Shown one piece after another: positions 1 to 24,063 of a stretch of DNA of 63,847 nt. Where the stretch lies: contig NW_013657655.1 of assembly GCF_000142905.1 (NCBI RefSeq), positions 1-63,847 of the forward strand. The letters are read 5' to 3'. The notes beneath the pieces were generated by a model. The model saw only the letters and a list, made by a program, of their open reading frames with translations. It was not told where the DNA came from and made no database searches. Each line of letters starts with the position of its first letter. Positions within the stretch are counted from its first letter, which is position 1. The translations under genes and the position numbers were made by a program. This stretch comes from Thecamonas trahens ATCC 50062. Lineage: Eukaryota > Protista > Apusomonadida.

Positions 1-1408
1 CATCCTCATCCCCGACCCCGACACCCATACCCCTCAACCATCACAATCATACTGCCCAATCTCCAACCAACAGCAATGTCAAGCCACCCAGCCCCGACCC
101 AGCCCCCTCAGCTGCGCCTGCTTTGCCGACCACCAGCCGCCAGCCGTCGCCTGCTCGCCCGATCGGCCGACCCTCATCACCACCTAGCTCCCACCCACTA
201 CCAGCTACACAACCCGCGACCACACCCAAGGTTTTCACTCGCCATGCACTAGCACCAGTATCAATATCGTCGTCATCGACACCCATCTTCCTCGGCTCAT
301 TTCCGCGTTGACTTGTTCTGCCTAGGTGGTTGAGCACGTCCTCGACCGCCCGACCCCGCACACAAACCCCATCACACTCATTGCCAGCTATACCCAATCT
401 GATTTCACTACTACTCTATTACATACCCCCCTACCCCCATGCACAGTTTCCAATCCACAGCTGCAGTATTCCGGAATCCGAGTTCCGCCGGCTCAGGCCC
501 AAGTTGTTGGCCCTGTGTCCCTTCGATGCTGCTGACCCCCCTCCCCGGGCCCATATCCGACCCCCACTCCCCACCATCCGCACCCACAACCACCACAACC
601 ACACGACACATACGCACTACACCTGAAACGTATCCACCCAATCTCTGCTTCCCGATATCTACATCAGCCGACGCCATCCCGTCAACAGCACCGCTGCCGA
701 CCGCCTGCTGCTCACCACCGATCGCCGCCCGAGCCGACCCGTCCACCGCCGGCACAACCCCGATCAGGCTAGACAGAGCACGAGTATAGTATGATCTACT
801 TGTGGGTAGTGAGACAAGTGGCAATGGCTATCAGTCCCTTCCCCCACCCCCACATCCCCTCCTTCTCCCCGCCTTGCCCATCCTGCCCCAGCCCACCTGT
901 CAACCAACCCAGCTGGTGGCGAGAGGACCGACGGGACCGACGAGGCCAGTGGGCTGGTCAGGGCGAGGGAGAGGGGAAAAGGGGGAAGAAGAGTGATATA
1001 AGGTGAGGTGGTTGATAAGATTGCAGTAGCCTGCCGCCTGATCTTGTGTCCTGATGCCTGTCGTCGTCTCGTGTCGACTGCTCACTGGCCAGCAACTCGC
1101 CGCTCGCTCGCCTGCCCGCTCAACCACTCACAGCCAAGCCAGATCAAGCCCGATCAAGCTTAGCACGACCTGCAGCTGGCTATACAGGGGGAGTAGCTGG
1201 TGGAGTCACAGGGATTGGAGGTGAGGGAGTGTAGATGGTTGTAGGATGTGTGTTGTGGCTTTGGCTGCTGCTGGCGCTGCTGCTGTGGCCGAGGCCACCC
1301 CAGACATACCACCAGCCAAGCCCCCCGTGGCCGCCCTGCCCAGCCCATATGTATGCGGCACCCCCTCCCCCATCGGGTTGTATGGCGCTCATCTGGTCGA
1401 TAGCGCCT

Positions 1409-1554
1409 TGCTGTAGTAGTCCGTATCGACAGTTGCGAATGCCTTCAATGCTGTACTACTTCGAGTGTGAAATCGGCGCGGTTTTGACTCCGCGACGACT
1501 TCCGCTCGAACCCAATGGAACCTCGTTGCCTGGCAACGAGTCGGAGCGGTAGCA
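1409..1554 (-). repeat. 3' LTR
   Basis: Matches 6180-6325 with 2 substitutions. Termini are TGCT...AGCA. Contains the inverted repeat CTCGTTGCC-T-GGCAACGAG. Confidence 0.93.
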
Positions 1555-1610
1555 ATCTGCCCCCATCGCGGCGGTATGCCATTGCCGACGCGATCGTTGC
1601 CGATGCCGTA

Positions 1611-4600: not shown

Positions 4601-4988
4601 CCTTGCCGAACGTCACGTCGCCCTCGGTGACTGTCTTCTGCCTGTCCTTTGCCGGCGCTGCCACGGCTGCCGTGAGGTTGATGCCTGTGTGCATCGGGAT
4701 GCGGATAGCGTCACGCGACTCGGCTGTGATCACCAGCGTGTTCTCGTACGCAACCGGGTACGCGTGTTCGTCGTTGAGGAAGCGCCACCCGAGGATAAAG
4801 TCTGCCACCATGTCTGGCACCACGAGCGCCCGGGTCAGGAACATGTGCTTGTTTCCCGACGCATCGGTGAGCTCGAGAGGGAGGGTAGCGGCCCCGATGA
4901 TGAGGAGCGTTCGTTTGCCGATATCCACAGTCGAACGCTCCAGCGCCGACAGGTTGCCCTCGATCTCAAGGCCAAGCGTGTACGCCGT
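1611..4988 (-). CDS. pol: Pol: protease C-terminal half, reverse transcriptase, RNase H, integrase
   Basis: RT motifs PWSLPVFLVKK, RVVQDARELN, DFDKAFHQV, MGWVNAP, FWMDD. RNase H motifs ATDAS, ELAAVV, TDSR, ADALSR. Integrase HHCC, WSVDNAG, HADRE, NGMAEK and GPY motif. No chromodomain evident. Confidence 0.95.
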   Translation of the reverse strand, partial: TAYTLGLEIEGNLSALERSTVDIGKRTLLIIGAATLPLELTDASGNKHMFLTRALVVPDMVADFILGWRFLNDEHAYPVAYENTLVITAESRDAIRIPMHTGINLTAAVAAPAKDRQKTVTEGDVTFGKDVTREQRARILRALNAYPALVLGTTPRRFTPLAEAAVMLMDGAEPFWRASRPRSAHERQILQAELDALEAAGYLRRVPDSERTIDSHPWSLPVFLVKKAGKETKYDDEGNPLPGSMRVVQDARELNKRCVKEYNEKLSVRSVLDAAGKRRYWTRIDFDKAFHQVMLREEDRAKMAFSLDTGELYEFVAMSMGWVNAPSVWNRVMARALGPLLQRVAFWMDDAVMGCDDIDEGITQLEQLLKRLDEARLTISLPKLELFVDETEFVGLVISEEGIGLKESAKDLFRTMERPTTTAALRSFLGAVQWFAAWIPQASAKSNILSMCMRKGHRLEWNDERIAAFESLRDAIVDAEPLAHAAELEREGVTAVVATDASVRAVGAVLSARDADGTSRTVAYAARAFAQRELSAGVPDKELAAVVHALTKFEPYLDGRRFELQTDSRAVQGMIESEDPPPGRKRARWLAFIRSFACDVVHVPGTSNGGADALSRLVLHRPDPEWEAMAAEEDSRVERRIARSVAAPVTTRSQTESRDNSRLESLLATLTFDSDDDESEAEATPTSAAPGTRRTQSRATAGPHQGPRTFTGEWTLGPVPPHAILRNIQKLQEDHAQHHLGRDAMVRRAKARGWDIQHIHKWAQLVADGCAGCLASKPYRTMHGAPGAAVTAGVDAPNQRWSVDNAGPFMWGENQDKHWVLVAVDTFSGYTMVGLLADRTARAVIDVLEGLFDLENVQTPQQPAQGAPRRAAGLPGPDHIHADREKSFMSAEVKRWATQQDRTILITAAAKGHPQGNGMAEKHVQNIKRTTMAAGWNKPLTDSPNSWYAVIKRMVAEYNKTPREYDRRPGHSVVSTPYALFKGADPPGTRHELTVAMRRAAVAEARRAQEIAGGGLNAASRQTKAFKIGDEVWWRTPEGSRRGPRALKNFKFEGPYVISGIKTRRDQAGGTSPPTVPLTYVIRHAHVRSAREADENKVVSVQDLRRGETMRLAGYLTKLPTQAAQ

Positions 4989-6152
4989 CTACAACGAGAT
5001 GAGCGAGAACGTGCTTCCGGAGTCGATGAGCGCGTCGGCGCTGTAGAAGCCGAGCGGGCCGGAGAGACGCGCCGTCACCCACTGGTTGGGTTCGTCATCG
5101 TCGCAGCCGTCCGACCCTTCTTCCCCCTCAAACCCCCCGGTATAGTCTTCGGCGGGTTCAATCTCAGAGCCGGCCAGCGCTGCGCGGCCGGCTGCCAGGA
5201 TCGGGCACGCGGCTAGCACATGCCCGGTCGACTCGCACGCCTCGCAGCGCGCCTTGCTCTTCTTCTTCTGCGGGCAGTTGCGCCGCATGTGGCCAGTCTC
5301 GTGGCATCTGTAGCTCGTGACTGTGTCCGGGTGCTGGCGGCGGCTCCGGTTGGAGCTCGCCATTGCCGCAGCCGCCTGCGCCCCTCGGCCGTGGGCCTTC
5401 GTCGGCGGGGCGCGGCGGAGGGTAATGCCGAGGTGCCCCATGCCCACGGCCGCCCGAACGATGTCGTCCAGACTGTCGGGCTGCTCGAAGCCCGTGTAGC
5501 CGGCCTCGCGGCTCAGCTCAATCCATTCCGCCCGCGAGAGGTGCTCTTCCAGCGTCTCGCCCAGCCGGTCAATGGCCGACTCTTCAGACGGCATCCCTTT
5601 CAGCGCCGGGAGGCCGTTGAACCACGAACGCACGCGTGAGCAGTACGCCGTGAGCGACTCCCCTTTCTCGGGAGCCATGTCTTTGCGGTACGCGCGCGCC
5701 TTGGCGCGCTCCGCTCCGATCACGTTGTTCTCGCTGATGAACCTAGCGAAGAACAATGCGACCACCAGCAGGCCGTGCTTCCGCGCGACCTGCTTCTCCA
5801 GGCCGTTCCGGCCCAAAGCCGACGTCACGGTCGTCCAACCCGTCTTCTCGACGCCCAGGGCGTCAGCCAGGTCTTCCGGGGACTCTGCGTCGTCCAGATC
5901 CGCCACGGCCGCCGAGACGCTCACAAGCAGGTTCGCGATTCGGCGGTCGCCATTCGCCTTGGCAAGGATGGCCTTACGGGCCGCCCTCGACATGTGCTCG
6001 CCGTAGGTTCCGAGGTCTTCGGCGAACTGGCCGAGCGCGTTGGCCATGGCCTCCATCGCCTGCAGCGCCGTCCCTTCCGATAGTTCGGGAAGAAGGGCGA
6101 TGAGGGTGCTGTAAATCTCCTTGCGCAAGGCGATACCTTCGGCTACGGACAT
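4989..6152 (-). CDS. gag: Gag with zinc knuckles plus N-terminal half of the aspartic protease; ends at an in-frame TAG
   Basis: CEACESTGHVLAAC (CX2CX4HX4C), a degenerate knuckle SYRCHETGHMRRNC, and protease motif ALIDSGS. Same frame as pol. Confidence 0.9.
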   Translation of the reverse strand: MSVAEGIALRKEIYSTLIALLPELSEGTALQAMEAMANALGQFAEDLGTYGEHMSRAARKAILAKANGDRRIANLLVSVSAAVADLDDAESPEDLADALGVEKTGWTTVTSALGRNGLEKQVARKHGLLVVALFFARFISENNVIGAERAKARAYRKDMAPEKGESLTAYCSRVRSWFNGLPALKGMPSEESAIDRLGETLEEHLSRAEWIELSREAGYTGFEQPDSLDDIVRAAVGMGHLGITLRRAPPTKAHGRGAQAAAAMASSNRSRRQHPDTVTSYRCHETGHMRRNCPQKKKSKARCEACESTGHVLAACPILAAGRAALAGSEIEPAEDYTGGFEGEEGSDGCDDDEPNQWVTARLSGPLGFYSADALIDSGSTFSLISL

Positions 6153-6179
6153 GCTGTTCTTGAAGACGTTGTCAAAAGT

Positions 6180-6325
6180 TGCTGTAGTAGTCCGTATCGA
6201 CAGTTGCGAATGCCTTCAATGCTGTACTACTTCGAGCGTGAAATCGGCACGGTTTTGACTCCGCGACGACTTCCGCTCGAACCCAATGGAACCTCGTTGC
6301 CTGGCAACGAGTCGGAGCGGTAGCA
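6180..6325 (-). repeat. 5' LTR
   Basis: Direct repeat of 1409-1554; ends 27 bp upstream of the gag ATG at 6152. Confidence 0.93.
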
Positions 6326-6334
6326 ATGCTAGAC

Positions 6335-6960: not shown

Positions 6961-8050
6961 GTGATTCACAAGCGCGCCCTTGACGTGTACTTTGCCGCGC
7001 CCACGTGCACGCCGTTGACGGTATGTACAGCGTGGTTCACACGGGCTGCGAGCTCTTCACCGTGCTGGGCATTGACGCTGATGGGCGTAGTGTGCCGCTC
7101 ATGGCAGCGTTTCTGCAGGAAAGTACGACGATGTCGTACCTGGAAGCGCTCCTCTTCTTCTCCAAGCACTTTGACGCTGCACCGGAGCTCGTCCTCCTCG
7201 ACGAGTGCGCGGCGGAGCTGCGTGCCGCGTGCCTCGCGTGGTCGACGACGCGCAAGCGCCACTGCCGCTTCCACCACCTGCAGGCTCTCGGTCGCCGCTT
7301 CACCGCCCTCTCCTATCCAGTGCACGACGTCATCGCCGGCCTCGTGTACGCCTCGTCGCCGGACGTCTTTGGCCGCCGCCTGCGCACGCTTTACGACGCG
7401 CTCGCCGGCGCGCGGGAGTGGGAGCCGGACTCGGCCGAGGCCAAGGCGCTCGAGGAGATTCACCGCGTTGCGGACGACCTCTCGAGCCTCAGCGCGTCGG
7501 ACGACGTCGATGCCATCATCGACTTTGACGGCGACGGCGATGTTGACGCTGTCGTCGACGTGGATGGCGACGGCGACGGCGACGGCGACGGTGACGGCGA
7601 CGGGGACGCCACGACGTCGAGCGTCCGCGACAAAACGTTCGAGCGGACGTACGGCGACGTCCACGACGTGGTGTACGACGCGAAGGTGGAGGAGCTGGCG
7701 TAGCGCGTTGCGCACTCGCCTGCTTTGGCGAGGAAGGTCCTCAAGTACCTCGCCGACACGCTCTCCAAGCGGATGCTCTGGTCGAAGGCTTGGTACACCA
7801 GGTACTACGCGTACGGCACAACTAATCATGTGGAATCGTGCCACCGTGTGCTCCGCTTCAAGTACGGTGTCGGCTGCCGCGTGGTCCAGCTTGCCCTCGT
7901 CGTCCAGCACGTTCTCGAGGTTTACCATGCGATCATCTAGCGTATCGCCTACGAGTCGTCGCACCAGCCGATCTATGGCCGCCGGATCACCGGCACGCGC
8001 GCGGGTCACGGCACGCGCGCGGGTCACGGCACGCGGTCGGCGGCGCCGGC
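6961..8050 (+). pseudogene. MULE/Mutator DDE transposase remnant
   Basis: VDGMYSV...LFTVLGIDADGRSVPL...LLDECAAE...CRFHHLQA (CxxH)...TTNHVESCH. In-frame TAGs at 7701-7703 and 7938-7940, a frameshift at CCC 7000-7002, and an Asp-Gly repeat insert. No TIRs identified. Confidence 0.85.
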
Positions 8051-8171: not shown

Positions 8172-9488
8172 CTAGCCAACTGTGGGCTCATAGTCAAAGA
8201 CGTCGTGGTAGGCGCGACACATGGCGCACGCTGTCCATTTCGGGCGCGAGAGGCAGCCGCGCTTGCGAGCAAGCTCGGCTAGTTTGGGCTGCACGCTCGC
8301 CTTCTTCCGCCATTCAAAGCGCGAGCGCCACTCGTCGTCGGTCATGGCGTTGAGAAAGGCGGCGAGATCGGCAGGGTCCGGAAAGTCTAGGACATCTACG
8401 AAAGAGTTGGGCGAGGGAAAGTGCGCTTTCGCGTCGGGTGGACCACCGTACACCACGACCGTGTCGTAATCAAGTGCCTCCAAAAACTTCTCGGTAAAGT
8501 AGTTTGTGACCAGTGAGTTCTCTATCGAGATGAAGAATCGATACTGTTCAGCCGCGATCTGCTTGTCCTTGTAGAATCCCCCCGAAGCAGGTTTGACAGG
8601 AGCATCTGCCGTGTGCCAGCAGCCACCCAGTGAGTAGACCTTCATGTGCCTCATCAACTCCACAATATAAGCGCTTCGCCACGTAGCACTCTCCTCGCAA
8701 TTAGAGACAACCACCACAGCAGCATTGACCTTGTCTGTAGGGTCCGGGGTAGGAAGATCCATTGATGAAAGCCGGGTCGGTCCGTCAGGGTCTTCCTTGC
8801 AATGAATCATGGTGTTGTCATAGTAGAAGATGGCGTCAGAGGCAGGATATGGCGACTGGAACAAGTCAGCGATGAACATGGGTCGTGGGTCAAACGAAAT
8901 CTCGCCCGTGGAAAACATAGTCTGTAGCCCGCGGCTCTCTGCATAGGTGACCATGTCAATGAGCTTGTCCCAATCCCATGTAAAAAGCCACGGCAACGTT
9001 GTCAAGTGCACGATTTCGCGAGCTTCAAGCTTCTCGATGGCGGATTCGATCGACTCGACGAAATCGTACTCACACGCAACGCCGCAAACCTCCTCTGAGA
9101 CACTACCCCGGCCCAAAAGCCACGGATCGACATTGCCCACGACAACAACTGGGTTATCATCGCTACGTTTGACTTTCTTCATCTGCGCCGTGTTGGGGAG
9201 CATCATGCGACGTCGGAGCAGATGAGTCTCTCGGGCTGCTTCGACCATCAAAGTCCACTTTGCCGTCTTTTCAAAGCCCGCCGCAAGGAAGTCGCGAGAA
9301 GGAGGTAAAACCTGGGAGGGCTCCTTGTCGCGGTCGCACGTGGGACAGTCTCGGTTGGTGGAACAGACTGTGGTGGGGCAGTCTTGGATGGTGTCGCAGT
9401 CATGAAAAGACCACATCATCACAGCAACCCAAAAGCAAACGACAACCATCACCTGTGGGTATCGTCGCAAGGCCACCGAAAGACTCAT
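8172..9488 (-). CDS. alpha-1,3/4-fucosyltransferase (GT10), type II membrane protein
   Basis: N-terminal TM, VVVVSNC, alpha-1,3 motif YRFFISIENSLVTNYFTEKFLEAL...VVYGG, and SFVDVLDF. Start placed at MSLSVALRRY. Confidence 0.9.
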   Translation of the reverse strand: MSLSVALRRYPQVMVVVCFWVAVMMWSFHDCDTIQDCPTTVCSTNRDCPTCDRDKEPSQVLPPSRDFLAAGFEKTAKWTLMVEAARETHLLRRRMMLPNTAQMKKVKRSDDNPVVVVGNVDPWLLGRGSVSEEVCGVACEYDFVESIESAIEKLEAREIVHLTTLPWLFTWDWDKLIDMVTYAESRGLQTMFSTGEISFDPRPMFIADLFQSPYPASDAIFYYDNTMIHCKEDPDGPTRLSSMDLPTPDPTDKVNAAVVVVSNCEESATWRSAYIVELMRHMKVYSLGGCWHTADAPVKPASGGFYKDKQIAAEQYRFFISIENSLVTNYFTEKFLEALDYDTVVVYGGPPDAKAHFPSPNSFVDVLDFPDPADLAAFLNAMTDDEWRSRFEWRKKASVQPKLAELARKRGCLSRPKWTACAMCRAYHDVFDYEPTVG

Positions 9489-9874
9489 GGTAGACAGTGG
9501 TATCGCCTTTGGCCTCCTTGACGAAGACAGATAGTCGAAGAAGACCAGTTGAGTGTGTGTGTGTTTGGGGGGGGGAGGAGAACATCCCCGACGTTTTGTA
9601 CGAGCGAGAGCAAGAGCAGTTTGTGTATGAGTCGAGGGAGCAGCGCATCTACGCGCGACACCGCGAGAAAAAGCCAGCAAGAGAAGATCCACTACCGCAA
9701 ATAAGACGAAAGAGCTGCGATACATCTCGATGAGCTGCAAGGAACGGCTGCAATGTTGTAGCGATTGCGGGGGCGTGGCTCCGGCTTGCCGCCAGAAAGC
9801 TCATTTTTCGGTCGGCGGAAGGCAGCCACAGGTCGCCAGTCAGACCGAAGTCACTTCTCGACTCGAAAACATTC

Positions 9875-11247
9875 ATGGCTGCCGAGAACAACCCGCTGGG
9901 TTTGGACGTGGCATCGGCCGCTCGCGACGGTTCGGTCCAGAGCAACGGGCCCGTCGCCCTCATTACCGGAATCACCGGCCAGGATGGCTCGTACCTCACC
10001 GAGCTTCTTCTTGACAAGGGTGCGTATTGTCCAAACTCATTGCTGCTTCGCCAAGCCCATGCCTCTTGCATAGTTCCGTTGCCGGCCGTGGATTCCCATT
10101 TTGTCGTTTCGGGCGGGAGGAAGGAAGGGCGGGAGGGGGGGGGGAGGGGGAGGGGAAATGCAATTGAGAGGGCGATTGCGAAAGGCAAGGGGGTAAGGGA
10201 GGTGGAGGCACGGTTGGTGGTATGGGCTCACGAGGAGCCGAATTGTGTGTGCGTGTAGGCTACACTGTTCATGGCATCATCCGCCGCTCGTCGTCGTTCA
10301 ACACCGGCCGCATCGAGCATTTGTACGAGGACCCGCACCGCGACTCGCGGCGGCTTGTGCTTCACTACGGTGACATGACGGACACGACGAACCTTCTGTC
10401 AATTGTGCAGATTGCCAAGCCCGATGAGGTGTACAACCTCGCCGCACAGTCGCATGTCAAGGTCTCATTTGAGCTGCCCGAGTACACGGCTGATGTGGAC
10501 GCTGTCGGCGTCCTCCGCATTCTCGACGCCATCCGCGCCGCCAACCTCGGCAAGCAGGTCAAGTTCTACCAGGCCTCCACCTCGGAGCTCTACGGCCTTG
10601 TGCAGGAGGTGCCGCAGTCCGAGACGACGCCGTTCTACCCGCGCTCGCCCTACGCTGTGGCCAAGCAGTATGCTTACTGGATCATTGTCAACTACCGCGA
10701 GGCATACAACATGTTTGCATGCAACGGCATCCTGTTCAACCACGAGTCACCGCGCCGTGGAGCCACCTTTGTCACCCGCAAGATCACCCGCGCCGTGGCC
10801 AAGATCGCCGCCGGCAAGCAGAAGGTTGTCTACCTCGGCAACCTCGACGCCAAGCGCGACTGGGGCCATGCCCGCGACTACGTCCGCGGCATGTGGATGA
10901 TGATGCAGGCCGAAGAGCCTGAGGACTTTGTCCTCGCCACCGGCGAGACACACACCGTCCGCTCCTTCTGTGACGCCGCCTTTAAGGTCATCGGTGTCGA
11001 ACTGACCTGGCAGGGCGAGGGCATCGAGGAGGTCGGCATCTCGTCGGTCACCGGCGAGCCCGTCGTCAAGGTCGACCCGGCCTACTTCCGCCCCACCGAG
11101 GTTGATCTCCTCCTCGGCGACCCGACCAAGGCCCGCACCAAGCTCGGCTGGGTCCCTGAGGTCACCTTTGATGCCCTCGTCCGTGACATGGTTGTCGCCG
11201 ACCTCGAGGAAATCGGCGCCGGCGACAAGGTCGTCGCTGCAAAGTAA
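9875..11247 (+). CDS. GMDS: GDP-mannose 4,6-dehydratase; exons 9875-10019 and 10259-11247
   Basis: [65 protein letters not shown] intron at 10020-10258 restores KGYTVHG. Confidence 0.98.
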
Positions 11248-12573
11248 CCTGTCCTTCCTGGTCCGCCGCTGCGCTGCCACGCTCGGCGCAATTGCTTTTA
11301 GCACTTCAATTGAGTGATCATTCCTGGCACCCTTCTCTGGCACATCATGCGCACGCTCGCACTCGCGCCCGCCTGGCATGCGGTCGGCCAAAGCCGGACG
11401 CGCGCTTTGCCGCCCACGGCGCGCGCCAGCCCTGGCAGCCAAGGCAAGGGACTGGTGCTCGCAACAAGAGAGTATACTCGTCTTGGGGAGAGTAGAGGTG
11501 AGACACGCGAGGACAAACAAAGTGCCGCAGCCTTTTGGCAATCACACTCTCGGTTCGCTCCTGGACCAGTTCGTGCCGTCGTAGTAGAGTGCTGCTTCAC
11601 GAGTACTGCGGGCTTGGCACATCTCTCTCCCTTTCTTGCGCACTCCCACTGACTTGCTCTTGATTGCCTGGGCTCGTTTTCCCCCTTTGGTTTCACACCT
11701 AATGAAGTTCGGCAGCAGGGCCCGGGTTATGAGCATGGTAGCTCTCTTGCAGTTGACATTGAGCTTCGCGCTCCTTACGACGAGTACCACTGCGGGCGAT
11801 CTCGGCGTTCGAAGAGGCGCCTTACTACGCGCTGCCGTAGCGGAGCCCGATCGGCCGCGCGCCTGCGGCCCGGCAGCGCTGGCTGCCGTGGGATTGGCTG
11901 CTCATGACGTCGAGGGGGGCGGTTTGGAGAGTAGCGAATGACGTGCGCGTGCGTCGGGCCGGCACTAGCAGAGTGCGTGTGCGTTGCGTCCGATTCTGCG
12001 CAATGTGCAGGGTTCCTCTTGCCTGGCTTTGTACCGGGCTCGTGCCTGGTGGCCTGAGAGCTCGCGGATGCGGGGGTGGTGGCATAAGTTTGAAACAGAG
12101 GGGGGGGGGGGAGGAGGGGGGGCAACGGGTGCTGTCGTGTGGCCACCAACGCCTCCGGCAGGGGGGCTTTTTGGGAACAGGGGGGGATGCCGCGAGCAAA
12201 GGGTGGGATGATTGGATGGTGACTGGCTTTAGGTCGGCGGTGGCTGCAGCTATCACGGGCAAAGACTATAAAGGAGCGTAGCGATGACGATGGCCAAGGG
12301 GATGCAAGCCCCGATAGCGAGCTGGAGTGGGAAGGCAGCCTGGCACGCCAATCATCTGTCGGCAGCGTTGGCGTTGGCGTGTCTGAGGGAGAGGTCATGG
12401 GAGAGGGTAGCCGTGGCATGATATATCGATCTGATCGCAGCGGCATAGGCACATGGCTCTCTGGAAGAGCCGTCGCAGCTGTGTGCTCAGGGAGGGCTAT
12501 GTTGTCTGTCCCAAATCGGAGGCGGGCCTACACGAAAAGGTTGTCGAAACGGCTGCACGGCGAGAAAATGGGG

Positions 12574-12858
12574 CTACGGCAATGGACAACCTGCATCACG
12601 AAGGAGGCTCATGACCTCGGTGTGGTTGTTCCGCGCAGCCATGCGGATGGCGTAATTGTTGTCGGCACCGATGTCAACACGCGGATCTGCAAGCAGAACA
12701 CGGACGACCTCCCTTCGGCCGTACTCGGAGGGAAAGCGGATGGCCGCGTTGAGCCGCTTGCACGACGAGGCGAGAGCGAGGACGTCAGGCAGAGGTAGCG
12801 GCGAGGTAGGATGGTATGCAATGCGGTGAATGAGCTCGGTGGAAAGCTTGTCCAGCAT
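12574..12858 (-). CDS. Short F-box-like + ankyrin repeat protein (likely internally deleted member of an expanded family)
   Basis: MLDKLSTELIHRIA...DVLALASSCKRL (F-box-like), then YGRREVVRVLLADPRVDIGADNNYAIRMAARNNHTEV (ankyrin). Confidence 0.7.
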   Translation of the reverse strand: MLDKLSTELIHRIAYHPTSPLPLPDVLALASSCKRLNAAIRFPSEYGRREVVRVLLADPRVDIGADNNYAIRMAARNNHTEVMSLLRDAGCPLP

Positions 12859-13294
12859 AATGGCTCTTGGTCGCGATCCATGCCCTGGCCTTTCAGGCCA
12901 GGCCCCAAGTCCAAGCGCTTCACGCCTATGACGAGGCTCACGAGTAAGTCTGCACCCAGTCGGGCCCGGAACGTCCCTTCCTGGTCGGGGGCTTCGTTCG
13001 ACGTTCGGCTGGCTGTGGACCCTCTGGTCTACATCATTAAACTGATTTACACTCACACGTGTACCACATGTACTTGGCACGGACCACGCTTCCGTGCGAA
13101 GAAGCGCGGGCGTTGCCGTCGATGGCACAGGTGGCGCGGAGTAAGATGATGGGATGAGGCTATCGGTGGGAGGGCGGGGGGAGTGCTCACGGAACGAGGG
13201 AGGGAGTTGTGGCGCCGAGTTGGCGCCGCCAACGCCAACAGCGCAAGACTTCACCCCCCCACCGTAGGCTCCGTGTATGGAGAAGGGAGGGGAA

Positions 13295-15040
13295 ATGTCG
13301 TTGAGAACACTAGCGTTGAGAAAGGCTGTTGTGGTGGTAGTGGTGCTCGTGGCAGTGGTCCACGTTGTCTTCTTTCCGTACATGAAGCAGACAGAAGACA
13401 AGGTGGGGCCAGCGCTTCACAACCACCGACAAGCTCGACGGGGTGACGGAAGCCTCACCCACAGCCCACTCAGCGCAGCTCGAGTCCACCGATTCTTTGA
13501 TCCACGTGGAGGATGCTGGAACTGCTATCCTGGTCTCAACGCGGTAGCGTGTGCGGGGGCTTCCGAGTGGGTGGCGGGCGAGTTGAGCGAGACGTACGTC
13601 CGCGAGACTAGGTTTCCCGCCGCGGTCGATCCGTTTGTCAAAGACGCAACCACTGCGCAGCTTGTGTCACCGTATGCAGGGGACGAACCGATGTCAGTCA
13701 GCGCGGCGATCCAATGTTGTGCACTGAAGCTGCCTCCGGGTATGGATGAGGGCGCGCCTGTGTACTCTGGGAGCCAGTGCCAGCTGCGCAACGCATCGAG
13801 TACGTTGCCGCGCAAGATGAACATGGAGGTCGGCGAGGCAGACACACATCCGCACTTTACGGTCTTTACTGGAGTTGGCGGCAGTGCGGACAAAGAGGCA
13901 CAAATGCTTGGTCGGACACTCGGGTATGAGTGGCCGGAGCTTCTGGAGGTGTACGCGAACAGAGTAGCTGATTCGCCGCCTGACAGTCTTGTGTACGACG
14001 ATCGGGTTGTCGTTGTCATCCACGACATGTGGTCTGGTAACTTCTGGCACACCTTCCACAACAGGCTCATCCGGACGTTTGGAACAATGGCGACCCTTGT
14101 AGATGAGGGCCTCATCACTTGCAGTGCCGAGAATCCGCGTGCATGCGACATCGCCCGTGACAAGGTTGTCCTCGCCTTGCCGGTCCCACTCACGCCAATC
14201 AGCGACGTCGACTTTGTGGAGCTTCTCGGAGGAGGACAAGAGCTGATGACCGCCGACAACGTTGTGTATCGTCGGATTGTGATAGGAGCGTCGACGCTTC
14301 TCGACGCCAACTCGCGGGTCATCGAGCCGCGGTCGATCATCCTCCTCGGCCACTTTGTCCGGTGGTACAATCTCCAGCTTGGCGTCGACCGTCCACTCCC
14401 AGCGATCTCCATCGACGATGCTCTCAAGAGCAAGGATGTACCGCGGCTTCTCCTCGTGGAGCGGGTTCGCAGGCGGGCATGGGCCAACCCGCACGAGATT
14501 CTCGACTGGGCCCGTGGGCGCGGCCTGGAGGTCGACACTATCCAGTTTGAGATTGCGAGCCATGCCGAGGTTGTCGACAAGTTGGCCGCCGCCACAATTG
14601 TTGTAGCGGTCTCTGGGGCCGGGCTCACCAACCTCATCCACATCACACCAGGCACGGTTGTCATCGACGTGCTCCCTGTGGCCTCGTTTGGGCTGGAGGA
14701 GAAGGTGACGACTGACGTCTGCATCTTCTCGCAGTTGACCAATGCGCGGGGCGGAGTCATGATCAAGATTTATGACTACCACGGCGACAACAAAGTCCCC
14801 ATCTCGTTTGTCAACCGCGACCACTTTGACGGCCTGCTCAACCAGGCGCTCACACTCGGGATCCACTCGGCGATGGCACCGAGTTGGACATGGGTGAATG
14901 TGCCGCCGGTTGAGTCGGGAGTGTTGATGGCGCCAGACGACCTCGGCGAGTTTATTGCCTCCGGATTCCCCGGCGCGTCCCGTGAGCATGCAGACGAGCT
15001 CTACGCGTCGTGGCCACCGTCGATGGCGGGTAAACTGTGA
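13295..15040 (+). CDS. GT61-family (DUF563) glycosyltransferase
   Basis: N-terminal TM; GNFWHTF; RRAWAN...ATIVVAVSGAGLTNL...PGTVVIDVLP (canonical HGAGLTN, here SGAGLTN). Confidence 0.8.
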   Translation: MSLRTLALRKAVVVVVVLVAVVHVVFFPYMKQTEDKVGPALHNHRQARRGDGSLTHSPLSAARVHRFFDPRGGCWNCYPGLNAVACAGASEWVAGELSETYVRETRFPAAVDPFVKDATTAQLVSPYAGDEPMSVSAAIQCCALKLPPGMDEGAPVYSGSQCQLRNASSTLPRKMNMEVGEADTHPHFTVFTGVGGSADKEAQMLGRTLGYEWPELLEVYANRVADSPPDSLVYDDRVVVVIHDMWSGNFWHTFHNRLIRTFGTMATLVDEGLITCSAENPRACDIARDKVVLALPVPLTPISDVDFVELLGGGQELMTADNVVYRRIVIGASTLLDANSRVIEPRSIILLGHFVRWYNLQLGVDRPLPAISIDDALKSKDVPRLLLVERVRRRAWANPHEILDWARGRGLEVDTIQFEIASHAEVVDKLAAATIVVAVSGAGLTNLIHITPGTVVIDVLPVASFGLEEKVTTDVCIFSQLTNARGGVMIKIYDYHGDNKVPISFVNRDHFDGLLNQALTLGIHSAMAPSWTWVNVPPVESGVLMAPDDLGEFIASGFPGASREHADELYASWPPSMAGKL

Positions 15041-15641: not shown

Positions 15642-16545
15642 ATGGCGTCATCTCACCTCGTCAACGCGCAGCCCATTCCGGCAGACTCCATCTACGGTAT
15701 TGCAGCTCGGGCCAAGGCCGACCCTGCACCAGTGGCCAACCTGGTCATCGGTGCCTACCGTGACTAGAACGGCAAGCCGTGGATCCTGCCGTCAGTGGCA
15801 GCGGCCAAGGCAGCAGCTGCTGCCGACGACACGGTCATCCACGAGTATCTGCCCATTCGCGGTGACACTGCTTTTACTGCTGCTGCTGCTCGCTTCATCT
15901 TTGGCGCAGACTCGCCCGTCGTCGACAGTCTTGTCTCCGTCCAGACGCTCTCGGGCACCGGCGCCCTGCGCGTCCTCGCCGAGCTGTTCAAGATCCTCGC
16001 CCCCGCCGCCCCGATCTACCTCCCCGACCCGACGTGGGGCAACCATGTCAAGGTGCTGTCGCGGACGAACCCGGACGCAGACATCCGCACCTACCGCTAC
16101 TTTGATGCCGCCACCCGCGGCCTCGACGCCGACGGCATGCTCGCAGACCTCCGCGCCGCCCGGAAGGCGCCATCGTTCTCTTCCACATGTGCGCCCACAA
16201 CCCGTCGGGTGTCGACCCATCCATGGCCCAGTGGGAGGCCATTCGCGACGTCTGCCTCGAGCGCGGCCTCTTCCCCTGGTTCGACGCCGCCTACCAGGGC
16301 TTTGCCTCGGGCGATCCCGACGCAGACGCCGCCTCGCTCCGCCTCTTTGCCGCCGCCGGCATCGACCTCGTCGTCGCTCAGAGCTTTGCAAAGTCTGCCG
16401 GCCTCTATGGCGAGCGCGTCGGTGCTGCTCACGTCCTCACCCACGCTGCAGACGCCCGCCCGGCGCTCATGACTCAGCTCGAGGGCATCATCCGCCCCAT
16501 GTACTCGTCGCCGCCGCGCTACTTTGCCAGTGTTGTCCAGTACCA
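15642..16545 (+). pseudogene. Aspartate aminotransferase, disrupted and 3'-truncated
   Basis: NLVIGAYRD*NGKPWILPSV (TAG at 15765-15767), VQTLSGTGAL, PTWGNH, CAHNPSGVDP, FDAAYQGFASG, QSFAKSAGLYGERVG, YSSPP. Frameshift at CCC 16159-16161. C-terminal small domain missing. Confidence 0.9.
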
Positions 16546-16664
16546 CTTGCCGGGTATGGGTGCACGGAGTGGGCGGGCGCAGGGACCCCCGCCCTCATCC
16601 CCGCCCGCTGCTAACTCCTCGCGCAAGGCCCGGCGTCAGGTGCGCTCCGACCAGCCAGCTCGAC

Positions 16665-17447
16665 ATGGCCGCCATTCGCCAGCTGGCAGGCCGCCCAAGC
16701 CGCCGCTTGGCGACGCCCTCGATCCACGCCGGGGTGTTCGATTTGTTTGATGATGTTACTCATGATGATGATGACGGCAAACCGCGGCCCATTTTCCTTG
16801 GGTCCCAGTCCGGCTTCACCTTGCTTGGGCTTGAAACAGACGCCTTTGGCGTGGGGGTGGCAAGCAGCCACCTCGCTGGCATTGGCAGCGGACTCTCTGC
16901 TCTCAGCCTGAGCCCTGGTGGCACAAGCGGTGGCGACAAGAGACAGCTCGAGCGGGCGAGTGGGGCTCTGGACGCAAGTTCGCGGTTTGTGGGCGCCGCT
17001 GAGGTTCTTGCCAATCACGCCTCCCAGCTCTACGCGCAAGAGAGTACCCTTCTACCGCCGGAGCCTGGATACGAGTTCTGTGTCGTCGACGGCGACGTGC
17101 GCGTGGCGCCGACAGAGCAAGACCGAAGAGTCCCGACGGTTGCGATCTTTCCCGGCGCAGTCGCCAAGCCGGGCTCGCTCACTGAGGCGTTGTCGAGCAT
17201 GAGAGCCGACTCTGTTGTGCTGCGCGGGCGGGCTAGCGTTGCGTGCGCAAAGCTGGGCACGACAGCAGACAAGCTGCGAAAGACAGCGTCCGGGCTGGCC
17301 ATGCTTCTCGACGCAGCCATTGCGCGGTTGTCGACTGGGATCGCGCTGTTCGAAGATGGGCTGTCTCAGGTGGCGGTTGCAGCAGAGACGGCGTCTCTGG
17401 CAGCGCACGGCGCTCGTGTTGAGTTTGTACCCCAGACGCCAGAGTAA
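16665..17447 (+). CDS. Hypothetical protein (orphan, island-associated)
   Basis: 260-codon ORF with protein-like composition; no recognised motif. Confidence 0.45.
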   Translation: MAAIRQLAGRPSRRLATPSIHAGVFDLFDDVTHDDDDGKPRPIFLGSQSGFTLLGLETDAFGVGVASSHLAGIGSGLSALSLSPGGTSGGDKRQLERASGALDASSRFVGAAEVLANHASQLYAQESTLLPPEPGYEFCVVDGDVRVAPTEQDRRVPTVAIFPGAVAKPGSLTEALSSMRADSVVLRGRASVACAKLGTTADKLRKTASGLAMLLDAAIARLSTGIALFEDGLSQVAVAAETASLAAHGARVEFVPQTPE

Positions 17448-17599
17448 ACAAGAGTTTGGGTGGAGAGGGAGGGGGAGGGGGGTACCCCCCCCCCCACCGC
17501 TTGATCACCGATCAGCCGATCAAAAATCAATGAAATGTGGGCACTCTGAACACTCCGCCGACCGCACACTCGTCTCACCCACCAACTGCTCCCATCGTG

Positions 17600-18781
17600 A
17601 TGTTTGGGTCAGCAACAGCAGTGCTCGAGAGTGCAAGTCTTGGCAACGGAGCTATTCCGGGCGGAGGCGGGTCTTTTGGTGGACCTCGTGGTCGCGGAGG
17701 TGATCGGGGAGGCAAAAGCCGCAGTGCGGCGCGGGGGCAGCGGGGACTCGTTGGTGTGGCGCCCTTCCACCTGATGAGAAGATACTGAGCAAGGACGACC
17801 TGACACTGGTGGGTGAGCTCCTTCGTGACCCGTCTGTAGCTAACGCCATCAGCGGGCTCGCGAGCGAGGTCTCGGGCTCGCTCGTGTTTGCGGTGGCTGC
17901 GGCAGAAGACGCGACGACGCTCACGCCGACGCCGCAGTTTCAGGCCATCATCGACGAGTTCTACAAGCCTGCTATCGGGTCGATGGTGCGCTTCTATGCG
18001 CAGTATGGGCTCATTTGCGCCACGACGGGCGTGGTGCCGTACACCGACGAGCGTGACGCGGCGGTCGTCATTGTCCCGCGAGGCAACTTTGTCATCACTG
18101 TCGCCGTCCGCCGCGGCATCTACCAGTACACCTTCTACTGGGACAACACACCCCAGGGCGGTGGCATCCGCCCATTCCCGGCCTTTAACGACACGTACGT
18201 CCGCGACGACCTTATGGAGATCTCGGCTTTTGGCGAGGAGGCGCCGTCGGCGGACGGCCGGCTCCATTCCCCGCTTACGACGCTGGTACAGAGCTATGTT
18301 GCGCTGCGCGAGGCCGAAGCACGCGAGGCTGAAGCAGCATCGCGGGCAGCTGCACTGTCTTTCGCCCTCGAGTCGGCTCCAGGGCCGCCGTCAGACCTGC
18401 TCACCGATGCTCAGCGCGCGCAGGCAGTGACGGTGGTCGAAGGCTACTATGCCGACGCTTCGCGCGGTGGCGTGGCTGCCATCGAGACGCAGCTCTCCAA
18501 CGCCGAGCTCATGGAACGACTGCGGACCATTCACGCCGAGGAGCTGCCTGAGCACTTGCGCCAACTCGAGGCATCGACGCGGACGACAACGCCTCTGGGG
18601 CGGCTGCTGTGTGAGCGGATGCTGGCTGCCGTGCATGGCGACGTCGAGCGGACGCGTATGCATGCCGCGACGGCCTCGTCGTCGTTTCTACACATCCCCC
18701 CAGGGCCAGCGAGTCGTGCCGCTCCCACCGCCACAGCAGTGGAGCCAAGGCAGACTCCAAGATGCGCAGGCGCCGTCGTAA
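17600..18781 (+). pseudogene. HK97-type viral portal protein-like ORF (candidate mirusvirus/Duplodnaviria origin), C-terminally truncated
   Basis: Motif order follows the HK97 portal N-terminal half: LLRDPSVANAISGLASEVSG; F..IIDEFYKP...YGL; VIVPRGNFVITV...YQY; DLMEI...DGRLHSPLTTLVQSY followed by a long helix. One extra C at 17762-17764 would join ATG 17600 to the main frame (17809-). Confidence 0.55.
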
Positions 18782-19246
18782 GAGCAAGCAGCGTGGCAAC
18801 GCTGGCAAGAAGAAGCAACGGAAGAAGCAGAAAAGGGCGCGAGTGGTGGTGACAACGACAACGACGACGACGACGACGGCCGGCCGGCCAACGCGCGCGC
18901 CGCAAGATCTAGGAGTACGACACCTGTCTTGCTCCGGGGCACGCCATGAACTGGACGGTGGGCGAGCTGCTCCATGGGGCATGGTGGACGTGGTCTGCGG
19001 CGAGCAGTCTCTACTCGCGAGCACAACAAGCTACATCGGGAGTCTTGGGAGGGGCGGTCGGTCCTGTCCCGCAGGTGTACGGCGAGGTCTTTGACGCTGT
19101 CACGGGCGATCTCGCTAACGCCAGCGCTGGCGGTGCGGTGTCCGCTGTTTGATGGCGGCTGGCTCTTTAAACATCGCGAGGTCCAACGCCTGAGAGGGGG
19201 GGGGGGGGGGGCTTTTTACTCTGTCACCATGGGGGTCAACACGGGC

Positions 19247-21054
19247 TCACCCTGTCGTTAACCAGGTGTGAACGGGAGCTAGACGCGAGGCCAACGTCTC
19301 CAGCTCGCGTGCCGGCGGCAACGGGGGGCGTGACTTGGGCAGCGCCACAGTGAGCGCGCTCCTGATAAGATCATCAGAGAGCGATGGGATAAACTCGGTG
19401 ACCAGGGTGTTGATCAGACTCTCCTCCTCCACGGCATCGTCTGCCAAGGCGACGTAGAGGATCAGGGTGACGACAAATTCCCAGCCGACCGCGTTTGCAT
19501 TGCACCCAATGGTCGTTGCGATGTGGGCGAGAAGGTCCTTGCCAAAGGGCTTGCCGCCGTCGGCGTTTCGCATGGCGAGCAGGAACCTGTAGAGGCACGT
19601 GACATGCGACTTCTCGAGTACAGTGTGCGCGCGTGGCACCTTGCTGTCGGCGGTAAAGTAGTTAATGAGAGCGCCAACGATGGTGGGTCCAACGATGGGG
19701 GCGTCGAAGATGTCCATGGCGGTGGGGCGGTCCCCGTTGACGAGCCTGGCGGCGGTGCCGCGGACAGGCTCCCAGCAAATCGAGGCAGCAGTGGCGACGT
19801 CGATGGCGGCAATTGTCTCAAGTGAGGCACGGTGGTTCTTGGTGGCTCTCAGCAGAAGGTCGACGATCTCGCGCGGACCGCAGAGGTTCTGAGTGGCTGT
19901 CGCGGCCACGCACGTGTGCTCGTTGTAGCGTTGTGCGCGGCAAGCATCGCATTGAATCCAAGCATAGACGCGCCCGCCACCCTGGAGACAAACCGCTGTC
20001 GGCCAAAGACGGGAGGCACGAGCCTGAGCGCGGCGTCGAGAACGAGCGTGACGAACGACTCTGTGAGCCTGAGCGCAGGGGCGAGAACACGCGCAAGCAC
20101 ATCGCCAAAGAGCGGATGGTACTCGACAGTGTCTGCGATCTCCACCTCGGCGACATGCGATGAGCCCAGCGCGATGGCCCGGAAGAGTGAGCCGATCTGG
20201 GCCAAGACCAGCCGAGCAACGGACGCCTGGTTCAGCCACTGCACCGGACTGCAGCTGAAAAGGTCGCCGAGAGCATGAGGCGAGACAAACACTGCCGCGG
20301 CAATGCCAACGCCCCAGGGAGCCATCGGCTGCGTTTTGGTTACATTCAGCGGGGCCTCTGCCAGGCGGTCCGGAGTCTGCCCAGCCATGTGGCGCGATGC
20401 ATTTGCTGGGGCAGCCACAGCACTTGCCGCGAGCGGGCCGCCACCTGCGAGACCAGCAAGCAGGTCCATGCTCAACGCACAGGCAGAATCAGTGGAGATC
20501 CTGGCCGCATTCGCCACTGCATCGGCACTGTTCTCGTCCTCGTCTTCGTCGTACGGCACCTTGACGTGGCACGGGTAAATAGCCGTGCTATGGCCGAGGA
20601 AACGCGAGTAGTTGGCGTTGGTCGTCACGAACGAGACGTAGTCGCCGTCAATGCCGGCAGGCACACCTCCCGCCCCATGGGACGCAGGATCAGCTTCGCC
20701 GTACACGTACATGGCCGCCACACGGAGTGCAGCAGGCTCGCCACGGAGTGCCCCGTCGCATGCAAGCATGCGGTGGTGGAGCATGTCGTCCGAGGACGCA
20801 GCGCGTGCTGCCATCAGGGCACGCGAGTTGGCAGCGCTGGCGTCCGCCAGCGAGTTGATCATGTTGCCGGTGGCAGTGCGAGACTCGCTGATCGCGAGAT
20901 AGTTGAGGACGGCCATGATCAGGCCGGTCGCAGCCAGGAGCGCAACGAACCCGACAAAGAGAGAGCCAGCCCACCAGAAAATAGGCGACATCGACTCGTC
21001 CTTGTCCGACTTGCCGCTCTCTGCATCGTCGAGCGCGCCCGTGCGGCCCATCAT
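19247..21054 (-). CDS. Hypothetical membrane-anchored protein, two overlapping frames (switch near 19850-19950)
   Basis: ORFs 19849-21054 (TM IFWWAGSLFVGFVALLAATGLIMAVL) and 19247-~19900 both read as protein-like; no family recognised. Confidence 0.45.
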
Positions 21055-21086
21055 TGTGTACTCGCTCGGGTGGGCGTGCCCGTGGC

Positions 21087-21287
21087 GATTGGTGAGGTGA
21101 TGGTTGTGCATTCGGCTACTCACAAGGGATCCCACGCAGTAACGTGCTACGGCTTTACCTCCACTGAAACAAAAAAGGGGCAGGAGACGTGTGGCTGGGG
21201 TGTGGCCTTGCTCCGAGTGTTTGGTCGGGGGAAGTGTGCTCTGTATTTGATGGCGGGCGGGGCGAGGCGCAGAACGCAATAGAGGCG
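21087..21287. repeat. 200-bp direct repeat, copy 1
   Basis: Aligns end to end with 23178-23380, with roughly ten substitutions or indels. Confidence 0.95.
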
Positions 21288-21415
21288 AGCGGTCGTGATC
21301 GACAACGCGACGCAGACGACGAACTGGGTCCCGGACGCACCGGGCGCGTTCGTGGTCGCGTTTTCGACGGGCTCGAGGAGGACACGGCGGTCACCGGCTC
21401 AGTAAACGACGGTGT

Positions 21416-23128
21416 TCAATCAACCTTCACCTCCTCGTGGGAGGAGTCGAGCCTCAGTCGGTACCGGGCCAAAGTGGGAGCAAGCGCGGACGAGAACTTG
21501 CGGCGGGCAGCGGACGTCGCGATGTCGAGAAGCGCCGCCGAGTCAGAGAAAAGGACGAAGAACTGGTCGCCGAGATCGTTGCCCGGCCGGACGCCGACGG
21601 CAGAATGAGACCGCGTCCAGCGGAAGAGAGGGATCGACGCGAGGGCGTCGAGGTACTGTGTCCTCTCGTCAGCATCGATGGCAGTTCGGAGCAGAAGCGT
21701 TTCCCCCACGGCGAGACGGTGGTTGTCGACGTAGAGAACCTGGAGGGCAGCTCCGGCGCGCCGCTGGACAGGGCGCATGACGTGGTAAAAATCAGGAACA
21801 AACGTGTCGTACCGGTCCGCCCACTCGGGCGCAGCATCGCAAGTCACAGGCACGATGTTGACCAGGAGGGCGTCGTGCTCGAGCTCTGCCATAGGAGGCA
21901 CGAAAGGGACAACTGCACCGAGTGACCGTGACATGGCCTTTGCCTCGGATGCGCACGTGTCGGCAGCAGCGTTGAGGACGAGGCGAGCAAGGCGCTCGTC
22001 ATCCTCCAGAGCAGAGACGATGGCCTCGTGCGCGTCGCCGAGGCCGGCCACAGTGACCAGCGTCGACGCCGCAGCAGCGGCAAATGCGGCAAATGAGACA
22101 GATGGCGACGACCGCAGCACCTCGGCGGCGGCGACAGCACCCTCCGACCACTCATCAGGGTCAACAGCCTCCAGCGCCCGGCACACGGCCGCGCGCATCT
22201 CCTCGTGCGACGGGTGGCAGCGCCGCGCCCGGGGGGAAACGAGAGGTGCGGACGAGTAAAGGAGAACGCCGGGCGCGGAGCGGAAAGCCAGCATGCGCAA
22301 CGCTTCAACGTCCGTGCGCATCGGGTCGAAGCACCCAAACACGACGCCCTGCTCCAGCAAGACCACAGCGCTCGGAGGGAGGCATGGCTCGCCACACGAC
22401 TCATCCCACTCCTGGCCTTCAAGGCGCTCGAGCTCGTCCAGGACGAGGAACGCCACGTCGTTCTCATCGTTGCGCACAAGAAACTCAAAGTACTCGCGCA
22501 GAACGTAGTGAGCGTCGACAAGGACCTGGGAGGCCTTTGGTGGGCGATACATCTTGAACACGGGAGCCCCAGCGCCGGCTTGGAGGGCGAGGGCGCCGTA
22601 CGGGCACGGCTCCCAGCCAGGATTGTCGTCATTCGGCCCGTACGCAAAGCCCAACAGGTCCGTGGTCAGCTGGCTCATGTTGTGGACAGGCGTCACGAGG
22701 TGGTGCTCCCACGCACCTGGCACGTCATCATACGCACCACCCTTGTTCACGGGATCGGGCTTGGCCGTGAAGCAGCCGCCCTCGCGCCGCTCAGTCGACG
22801 CACACTGGCAGCAGAACAGCAGAGGCGGGGAGCCAATGGGGATCGGCCGGACGCAGCAGACGCCGAGCCCAAACTGGCGAGTGCCCGAGTCACCGAACGC
22901 CGCGACTACCTCTTCGAGGTAGTCGACCACGGTCTTCTTCACCATCGCATCGTGCCTCGCCACCCTCTTCGTCTGCTTGTTCCCCTTGACCTTCTGCAGC
23001 TTGACCTGCTCGAACACCGACTGCTTAATGAGGAGGGCGTGTTTGCGGACCAAGGCGTCCTTCACGTCGCCTTCTTTCACGAGCGACGCGTGCGGCGCCT
23101 GGCCGGCCCTGCCCCGATGGCATCGCAT
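21416..23128 (-). CDS. Hypothetical protein (orphan, 570 aa) between the 200-bp repeats
   Basis: Long uninterrupted ORF with a Cys cluster (CCVRP...FCCQC...C); no family recognised. Confidence 0.55.
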   Translation of the reverse strand: MRCHRGRAGQAPHASLVKEGDVKDALVRKHALLIKQSVFEQVKLQKVKGNKQTKRVARHDAMVKKTVVDYLEEVVAAFGDSGTRQFGLGVCCVRPIPIGSPPLLFCCQCASTERREGGCFTAKPDPVNKGGAYDDVPGAWEHHLVTPVHNMSQLTTDLLGFAYGPNDDNPGWEPCPYGALALQAGAGAPVFKMYRPPKASQVLVDAHYVLREYFEFLVRNDENDVAFLVLDELERLEGQEWDESCGEPCLPPSAVVLLEQGVVFGCFDPMRTDVEALRMLAFRSAPGVLLYSSAPLVSPRARRCHPSHEEMRAAVCRALEAVDPDEWSEGAVAAAEVLRSSPSVSFAAFAAAAASTLVTVAGLGDAHEAIVSALEDDERLARLVLNAAADTCASEAKAMSRSLGAVVPFVPPMAELEHDALLVNIVPVTCDAAPEWADRYDTFVPDFYHVMRPVQRRAGAALQVLYVDNHRLAVGETLLLRTAIDADERTQYLDALASIPLFRWTRSHSAVGVRPGNDLGDQFFVLFSDSAALLDIATSAARRKFSSALAPTLARYRLRLDSSHEEVKVD

Positions 23129-23177
23129 CCCAGTGCTCAGACTGGGTCAATAAAGCAAATGATGTACTGACGATTGA

Positions 23178-23380
23178 GATTGGTGAGGTGATGGTTGTGT
23201 ATTCGGCTACTCACAAGGGATCCCACGCAGTAACGTGTTGCGGCTTTTACCTCCACTGAAAACGAAAAGGGGGCAGGAGACGTGTGGGTGGGTGTGGCCT
23301 TGCTCCGAGTGTTTGGTCGGGGGAAGTGTGCTGTGTATTTTGATGGCGGGCGGGGCGAGGCGCCGAACGCAATAGAGGCG
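23178..23380. repeat. 200-bp direct repeat, copy 2
   Basis: See copy 1. Confidence 0.95.
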
Positions 23381-24063
23381 CCTGTTGGTCGAGTGAAAGG
23401 CTCCCCGGGTGCGTCGCTGCGGGCGGCGGCGGAGGCTTTCTGGCCACGCGGTGGTGGGGCGGGCGGAGGCTTTCTGACCACCGCTTGCCTGCCCAGCCAC
23501 CCCCCCCCCCCCTCCCCCCCTCCCCTCTTCTACAGTCACTCCTAGCTGAGACCTCCTATATTCCACGTTGACACATACCTTAGCTTATATAACATACTCT
23601 GCTCATGCTTCAATGAATTAGACTCTCTACGCCATGCCTTTGCGTCCGTATTGGCTATTCAGTGTCCGCGAGCCGCCCTCGCCACCTCCTCACCAACGCC
23701 CGGCCACCCACAGTCGTCGCCATCACCTTTCCTCCTGCAACAAGCTTGATATCCCACAAACAGCATTACTATACAACTAGCCTTGTAAATCTGCTTTGTG
23801 TACACTAGCAGGAACTGGCTGATGCAACAGATGGTTTCTCTAATCGATGTTGAGGGCTATGTGTGTGGTTCTGTACCTGGGTTGCTGCTGGCCTACGCTG
23901 TGAGTGCGTCCGGCGAACGTTCAAGCGTTCTCCTTTCCTACCCAACTCACCGACACCTCAAACACTCCTCGGCTGCTATACAGAACACCGACTACCAGTG
24001 ATTGTCCAAGCACCTGGTTGTTACTGTCCACCTTTTGCAGCTCCAAGCCGTTTGCATATAGCC

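Follow-up and report, generated by a model that had tools for sequence, protein, structure and literature searches.

A frameshifted and truncated gene with the predicted fold of a viral portal protein lies in the chromosome of Thecamonas trahens, and it is probably the remnant of an integrated, mirusvirus-like virus that infected apusomonads, a reading to which we give a probability of about three in four. The stretch analysed, referred to here as the window, comprises 63,847 nt of T. trahens ATCC 50062 (NW_013657655.1 of GCF_000142905.1, forward strand). The gene likely ran originally from an ATG at 17600 to a TAG ending at 18912, and it is found inside a 7-kb block of orphan frames that starts at 16538. 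The features of the locus are as follows.

15642-16537, forward strand: truncated copy of the host aspartate aminotransferase gene (PF00155, E 1e-16 and 7e-29), with an in-frame stop at 15765-15767
16537/16538, no strand: left block junction, which cuts the aspartate aminotransferase gene and has contig forms in several runs
16665-17447, forward strand: orphan ORF of 260 aa upstream of the portal gene, with no Pfam or PHROG family and a weak coding signal
17600-17760, forward strand: 5′ portal piece, a Gly/Arg-rich N-terminal arm starting at ATG 17600, one base out of frame with the core
17761-18695, forward strand: portal core, corresponding to about residues 37-350 of relative P0010 and comprising the wing domain, the first stem helix and the helices of the clip region
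18697-18737, forward strand: end of the clip strand with the V.PLP motif in a shifted frame, its register agreeing in all three long relatives
18737/18738, no strand: junction at which most of the C-terminal half is missing, nothing in the window matching homologue residues past about 365
18738-18912, forward strand: basic/acidic C-terminal tail, likely of the same gene, in three short frames with the stop TAG at 18910-18912
19250-23146, reverse strand: three orphan frames annotated jointly as AMSG_11920, with no Pfam or PHROG family and no usable Atlas match

The frame 17761-18695 is coding. With nine Pfam-supported host genes of the window as reference, the codon log-likelihood over 17770-18702 is +0.143 per codon, against -0.19 to -0.62 in the five other frames, and it drops to -0.53 in the same frame past 18702. 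The portal frame is therefore a real gene that breaks at about 18700. An earlier note on this DNA had quoted a series of portal motifs in one frame, all of which indeed fall within the stop-free forward frame 17704-18852, and had the frame break down after FLHIPPG, as the codon scores bear out. It placed the break near 18705; the breakdown is real, and its nature is a frameshift at about 18696 followed by the junction at 18737. Both outer limits need correction: the likely end is the TAG at 18910-18912 and not 18781, and the ATG at 17600 lies one base out of register with the core. Alignment to the relatives requires no intron and the GC of the gene (0.647, window 0.624) is host-like, both as previously claimed.

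The core fully covers all 11 predicted P0010 elements from helix 45-55 to helix 315-341. The V.PLP piece is weak on its own (shuffle p 0.01-0.32). In the tail (18738-18912), 22 K/R per 57 residues compare with 19-21 in the tails of P0008-P0010, a match of composition only, as homology by residue order was not found and 216 of 500 shuffles score equally; the tail presumably carries an NLS-like pattern.

On its sequence, the window copy is a pseudogene, because its frame shifts near 17761 and again near 18696 and about half of its length is gone at 18737. The contigs of public sequencing runs (X1, X3, X5, X8, X11, X12 and X14) were compared with the window. In X11, an estuary run, one base inserted at 17761 brings ATG 17600 into frame, and one base fewer at 18696 places V.PLP in register with three relatives. 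Reading through the breaks with an X gives a profile score of 194 bits instead of 183 and moves the start of the match from position 35 to 11. In one X11 contig (record 6) the 252 letters that follow 18737 differ from the window sequence, and a second (record 7) joins that sequence at 18736, preceded by 69 letters that do not match it; X1, X5 and X8 have contigs that cross 18737 in the collapsed form of the window. The sequences point to a likely internal deletion at 18737 that removed roughly 400 codons lying between the clip and the tail. No further piece of the C-terminal half scores within the window. P0010 helix 367-381, the second stem helix, has no counterpart in the window copy, where the first stem helix and clip region are present, and of the crown or C-terminal domain 0 of the 58 residues of P0010 helix 395-452 align, with nothing significant elsewhere in the window. 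A single extra A in X5 at 18830 and at 18889 would link the three tail frames, and the indels listed for X11 give the same net tail frame.

Between X11 and the window over 17600-18737, 8 of the 9 substitutions listed are silent in the portal reading (expected fraction 0.27-0.32, P<=7e-4), and in the ATG-17600 frame this holds for all X11 substitutions in the 5′ piece (6/6). Six of the nine changes come from one 397-nt contig of depth 4.1, and low depth is an unlikely source of the bias because errors would not fall preferentially on silent sites. In the neighbouring glycosyltransferase, by contrast, 7 of the 19 changes listed are silent. The lineage linking both variants therefore appears to have kept a working gene until recently, and a closely related, probably more complete copy was likely under purifying selection during that time.

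The same silent changes, together with host-like codon use, would also suit a portal gene domesticated by the host, still working in some Thecamonas strains and lost in this one. X11 differs from the window by about 1.4% in host genes (19 in 1340) and by 0-2.5% in the portal pieces, so the X11 variant may be chromosomal. Domestication is nevertheless quite improbable: there are several separate breaks (the window frameshifts and junction, a frameshift near 18462 in the P0002/P0003 alleles, and a junction at 18499 in the P0007 allele), the flanks vary between populations, and selection in a virus before integration explains the silent bias equally well. Within the preferred reading of a viral remnant, the X11 copy may be proviral and not free, because X11 also contains host genes. 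The RNA run X14 has contigs on 16400-17299 and leaves the portal core uncovered, a gap without evidential weight. In X5 contig depth is 5.8 on the portal gene and 2-7 nearby, a measure too coarse for the question of an episome.

A phmmer search of 1.84e9 representative proteins gives 8 matches, four of which are true non-self relatives. P0002 and P0007 among the matches are alleles of the portal gene and are not counted as relatives, and P0012 and P0013 were dropped as chance matches of SprB repeats. P0008, P0009 and P0010 (817-861 aa) match at E 5e-30 to 7e-28 with 29-31% identity over 286-304 residues (P0010 at E 7e-28), and P0011 (656 aa) matches at E 2e-8. All of these relatives are metagenomic proteins that are unnamed or called "hypothetical"; their contigs measure 5.8-35.4 kb, those of P0008-P0010 being 18.7, 27.3 and 35.4 kb long. 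In a word-index protein search the single ORF retrieves one allele only and an alignment query retrieves P0010 only; viral-contig and metagenome scans found no relative of the portal gene, and motif scans gave 49 and 3 loci with 0 family members.

By profile, none of these proteins is recognised as a portal. For the ORF and all four relatives, no portal family of Pfam, PHROG or NCBIfam is matched at E<=1; the Caudoviricetes portal families PF04860, PF05136, PF06074 and PF07230 give no profile match at the curated cut-off, and the herpesvirus portal (UL6 family) gives no Pfam match, the likeness to it being one of fold. Alignment to the HK97 gp3 portal by hhalign has a probability of 0.2%. Sequence searches of the PDB return no portal; an APS kinase match (E 0.005 over 43 residues) was judged to be chance. 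The earlier proposal of similarity to portals holds for predicted structure and fails for profiles.

The structural evidence comes from an Atlas model of allele P0003, which is 99% identical to the window gene across its first 236 residues, and from an AlphaFold model of P0010. In the Atlas feature search P0003 scores 0.94, with 10 of 10 family-bearing matches in the portal clan, an agreement also reached by one third of shuffled proteins; 119-131 of 256 features are shared, against 170 typical for matches of the same family. The Atlas structure search returns 8 rows, which align over residues 1-247 at a TM by query of 0.44-0.48; five of them carry a portal family and three carry none, and PF04860 alone meets the naming bar. 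The P0010 model, built from a five-row alignment, has a mean pLDDT of 48 and a block of 57-86 over residues 31-210. Foldseek against the PDB finds 28 matches at E<=1e-3, and 31 of the 31 PDB rows among the matches listed are portal, neck, connector or tail-complex entries; the match to the T4 portal has E 1.6e-5. On this relative, the AlphaFold and Foldseek check proposed beforehand came out in favour of a portal. BFVD gives 51 matches, the best 50 listed including 20 named portal and 6 COG4695. A second look with VIA finds portal, neck, vertex or tail entries in 49 of the 50 matches listed (209-283 residues aligned, over model residues about 31-403), and a wide, unbiased VIA search finds portals in 22 of the 50 listed, with an unrelated helix match as the top row. 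The VIA Z for portals is 7.1-8.7 over 200-280 aligned residues, near the chance range of the tool, and the alignment extends through residue 401. A single-sequence AlphaFold model of the window ORF reaches a pLDDT of 37.8, and BFVD and VIA searches from it are uninformative.

A wing alpha/beta domain with portal topology is predicted by the P0003 model and, via homology, by the P0010 model. Single scores are modest, and the portal-fold call stands because one fold recurs across two models and three libraries. The portal fold of the gene product is thus supported by two predicted models, in agreement with the original identification of a portal-like protein, and it is almost certain, as far as such models go, that the product worked like a portal. 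The label "HK97-type" originally attached to it is too narrow, as the Z to HK97 (7.5) is no better than that to T7 (8.7) or cytomegalovirus (8.1). Nor can the fold name a phylum, because the named fold matches are portals of phages, archaeal viruses or herpesviruses.

T. trahens eats bacteria, and a phage or prophage portal gene acquired from its prey would explain the lack of an intron and the fact that nearly all fold matches are portals of tailed prokaryotic viruses. Such an origin is very unlikely, as the gene has no sequence relative in phage records, PHROGs, Pfam or NCBIfam. In 50,697 phage records tblastn gives nothing below E 0.7 for all three queries (ORF, P0010 and P0011), and the only GTDB locus matched is a chance match of 41 residues, which we take to be a phosphoglycerate mutase. 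Moreover, K/R-rich tails end the relatives, and the published mirusvirus portals examined obtain the same phage matches.

Among viruses of eukaryotes, portals occur in herpesviruses and mirusviruses (PMC10132985). A protist host and the lack of prokaryotic relatives by sequence favour the mirusvirus side. A0A6J7WTK8, the top BFVD match of P0010, is also the top match of two of four published mirusvirus portals, and A0A6J5LMY9, which tops the other two, ranks 27 for P0010 (PMC12768974). The source virus would likely belong to Mirusviricota. A less probable source, at long but not extreme odds, is a lineage of duplodnaviruses that infects eukaryotes and falls outside the Mirusviricota orders described so far. 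It would fit a gene missed by the published portal HMM screen (PMC10827195), the retrieval of only four relatives by phmmer when 988 mirusvirus portals are described (PMC12768974), and the length of P0008-P0010 (817-861 aa) against about 380-690 aa in six mirusvirus portals. Mirusvirus portals are, however, very diverse, with two orthogroups (14 and 341 genomes) separate from the main one (PMC12768974); P0011 is intermediate to the AurliV portals by eye, and the top BFVD match is common to published mirusvirus portals.

No MCP, terminase, triplex or protease was recognised in about 33 long frames of the window (Pfam; PHROG/Atlas) by methods insensitive to these genes, which agrees with the earlier note for MCP, terminase and protease. 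To our knowledge, Pfam and PHROG likely hold no mirusvirus models. The Thecamonas row of Zhao et al. (PMC10827195) reads MCP N, Portal N, Triplex1 N, Triplex2 Y and Maturation Y. The first-generation mirusvirus portal HMM must have missed or filtered the gene, because Thecamonas is scored portal-negative there, and the Triplex2 and Maturation positives are weak because 71% of assemblies had some match (PMC10827195). Thecamonas is not named in the main text of bioRxiv 10.1101/2025.04.19.649669, and a literature search on Thecamonas or apusomonads with mirusvirus, endogenous virus or MCP, supplementary tables aside, found no report of this element.

The location of the gene in a protist chromosome, as first proposed, is supported by contigs of three runs (X1, X5 and X14) that cross the 16537 junction with the host aminotransferase gene. 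A block-free aminotransferase gene runs on in X1, X3 and X14, and the block start stands behind another flank in X11, X12 and X14; the block junctions vary between populations. The locus thus combines the two marks of an endogenous viral element, joining to the host chromosome (X1, X5 and X14) and decay by frameshifts and truncation. The varying flanks, and the fact that no single contig spans the whole stretch, might instead suggest an assembly chimera or contaminating viral DNA. This is hardly credible: X5 matches 16400-17258 without a difference and 17991-19072 without a substitution, X1 and X14 cross the 16537 junction as well, and four runs tile the region together with host genes. A transposon end at 16538 was considered and found no support, there being no matching inverted terminus and no remaining part of the aminotransferase gene in the window. 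As an integrated viral remnant, the 7-kb block would be a proviral copy in decay.

Besides the in-frame TAG at 15765, the aminotransferase copy lacks one base at 16158, a gap filled in four runs, and a longer copy occurs in several runs. The orphan ORF at 16665-17447 is possibly of viral origin. Past the portal stop lies a short coding-like frame (18947-19153), and X11 contigs diverge at about 19067-19074, a further junction in the block. The frames 19250-23119 agree with AMSG_11920 at 99.5% and 100% in two segments and at 91% across a spliced one. The last of them (21419-23146, reverse strand) occurs a second time in the genome as AMSG_12459, at 94%, and is flanked by direct repeats of 200 bp that are themselves 94% identical (21087-23380). 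One X11 contig returns from 23163 to 21144, a step back of 2020 bases such as a tandem or circular unit would give. This ORF and its repeats may form a small mobile element.

The orphan surroundings described previously are confined to 16538-23500; outside these limits the window has ordinary host genes together with a gypsy-type retroelement and a MULE transposase. It represents a eukaryotic chromosome that is GC-rich and densely packed with genes, among them proteasome, ABCA, WD40, USP and glycosylation genes. The gypsy-type LTR retroelement (1408-6327) has a pol frame with RT, RNase H and integrase (1614-4988, reverse strand) and a gag frame with a zinc knuckle (4992-6215, reverse strand); it is likely young, because its 149-bp repeat pair (1408-1556 and 6179-6327) is 98.7% identical. 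A MULE transposase domain fragment (PF10551, E 1e-11) follows at 6984-7700. Adjoining the orphan block, 8175-15040 encodes a GT10 fucosyltransferase of lower GC (0.55), a GDP-mannose 4,6-dehydratase and a GT61 protein; giant viruses, too, commonly carry glycosylation genes. At 12895-13059 there is a short multi-copy repeat, at which all four runs compared have many loose ends; an ankyrin-like ORF fragment on the reverse strand has this repeat immediately upstream. At 52040-54835, one ORF joins a GNAT/FR47 acetyltransferase domain to a TIR_2 domain.

In the source virus, by analogy with the portal family, the full protein (about 820 aa in the relatives) would form a 12-subunit ring at one capsid vertex, through which the terminase would pump DNA, and the basic tail may bring the protein to the nucleus. 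The window copy is predicted to be unable to make a working ring because the second stem helix and crown are absent.

Animals are the hosts of herpesviruses, whereas the relatives of these viruses in protists have come to light mostly through metagenomes and in stramenopiles. Apusomonads, which are sister to animals plus fungi (PMC12557545), would join the hosts of mirusvirus-like viruses, and through the gene four metagenomic orphan portals gain a likely host group. Marker HMMs of today probably under-count such infections. With the estuary variant biased towards silent changes, a living virus or an intact provirus becomes a testable target in a cultured organism. That an undescribed, deep herpes-related lineage with 820-aa portals infects apusomonads today, persisting as intact proviruses or episomes in wild Thecamonas (X11), is a tentative extension with the odds against it; if true, it would provide a culturable host for tracing the route from mirusviruses to herpesviruses. 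As it stands, this is one more decayed viral gene of a kind reported from many protists. Decayed endogenous mirusvirus portal pieces are common in protists; new in this case are the lineage of the host, the divergent family of 820-aa portals and the evidence that selection acted recently.

Among known systems, the portals of phages (T7, T4, HK97, G20c) and herpesviruses (HCMV, KSHV) have the core fold in common with P0010 over about 200-260 residues (Z 7.4-8.7), at 5-16% identity and without a profile match, and HCMV (Z 8.1) is tied with the phage portals. For Mirusviricota portals (1140-2070 nt), BFVD entries A0A6J7WTK8 and A0A6J5LMY9 and PDB entries 4zjn and 6qjt recur in the P0010 lists, the likeness to the window family being one of fold matches (PMC12768974). 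The portals of AurliV-1 and AurliV-2 of Aurantiochytrium (PMC12606086) show by eye the motif order of the window gene, with a common F..I..FY.P helix ending in G, HSPL at the start of the stem and P.G in the clip. They also have fold matches to phage portals, and AurliV-2 is a chromosomal integrant (PMC12606086). The AurliV portals are whole genes of 561 and 486 aa in near-complete viral genomes with an MCP (PMC12606086), whereas the window gene is a lone broken gene with relatives of about 820 aa. A parallel in state is given by the portal markers of Zhao et al. (PMC10827195), likewise short, decayed portals in protist chromosomes, which are reported there from 171 genera, mostly as decaying pieces of 100-200 aa. 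Unlike those pieces, the window gene keeps about 380 codons of its N-terminal half and has a variant in the wild with signs of selection.
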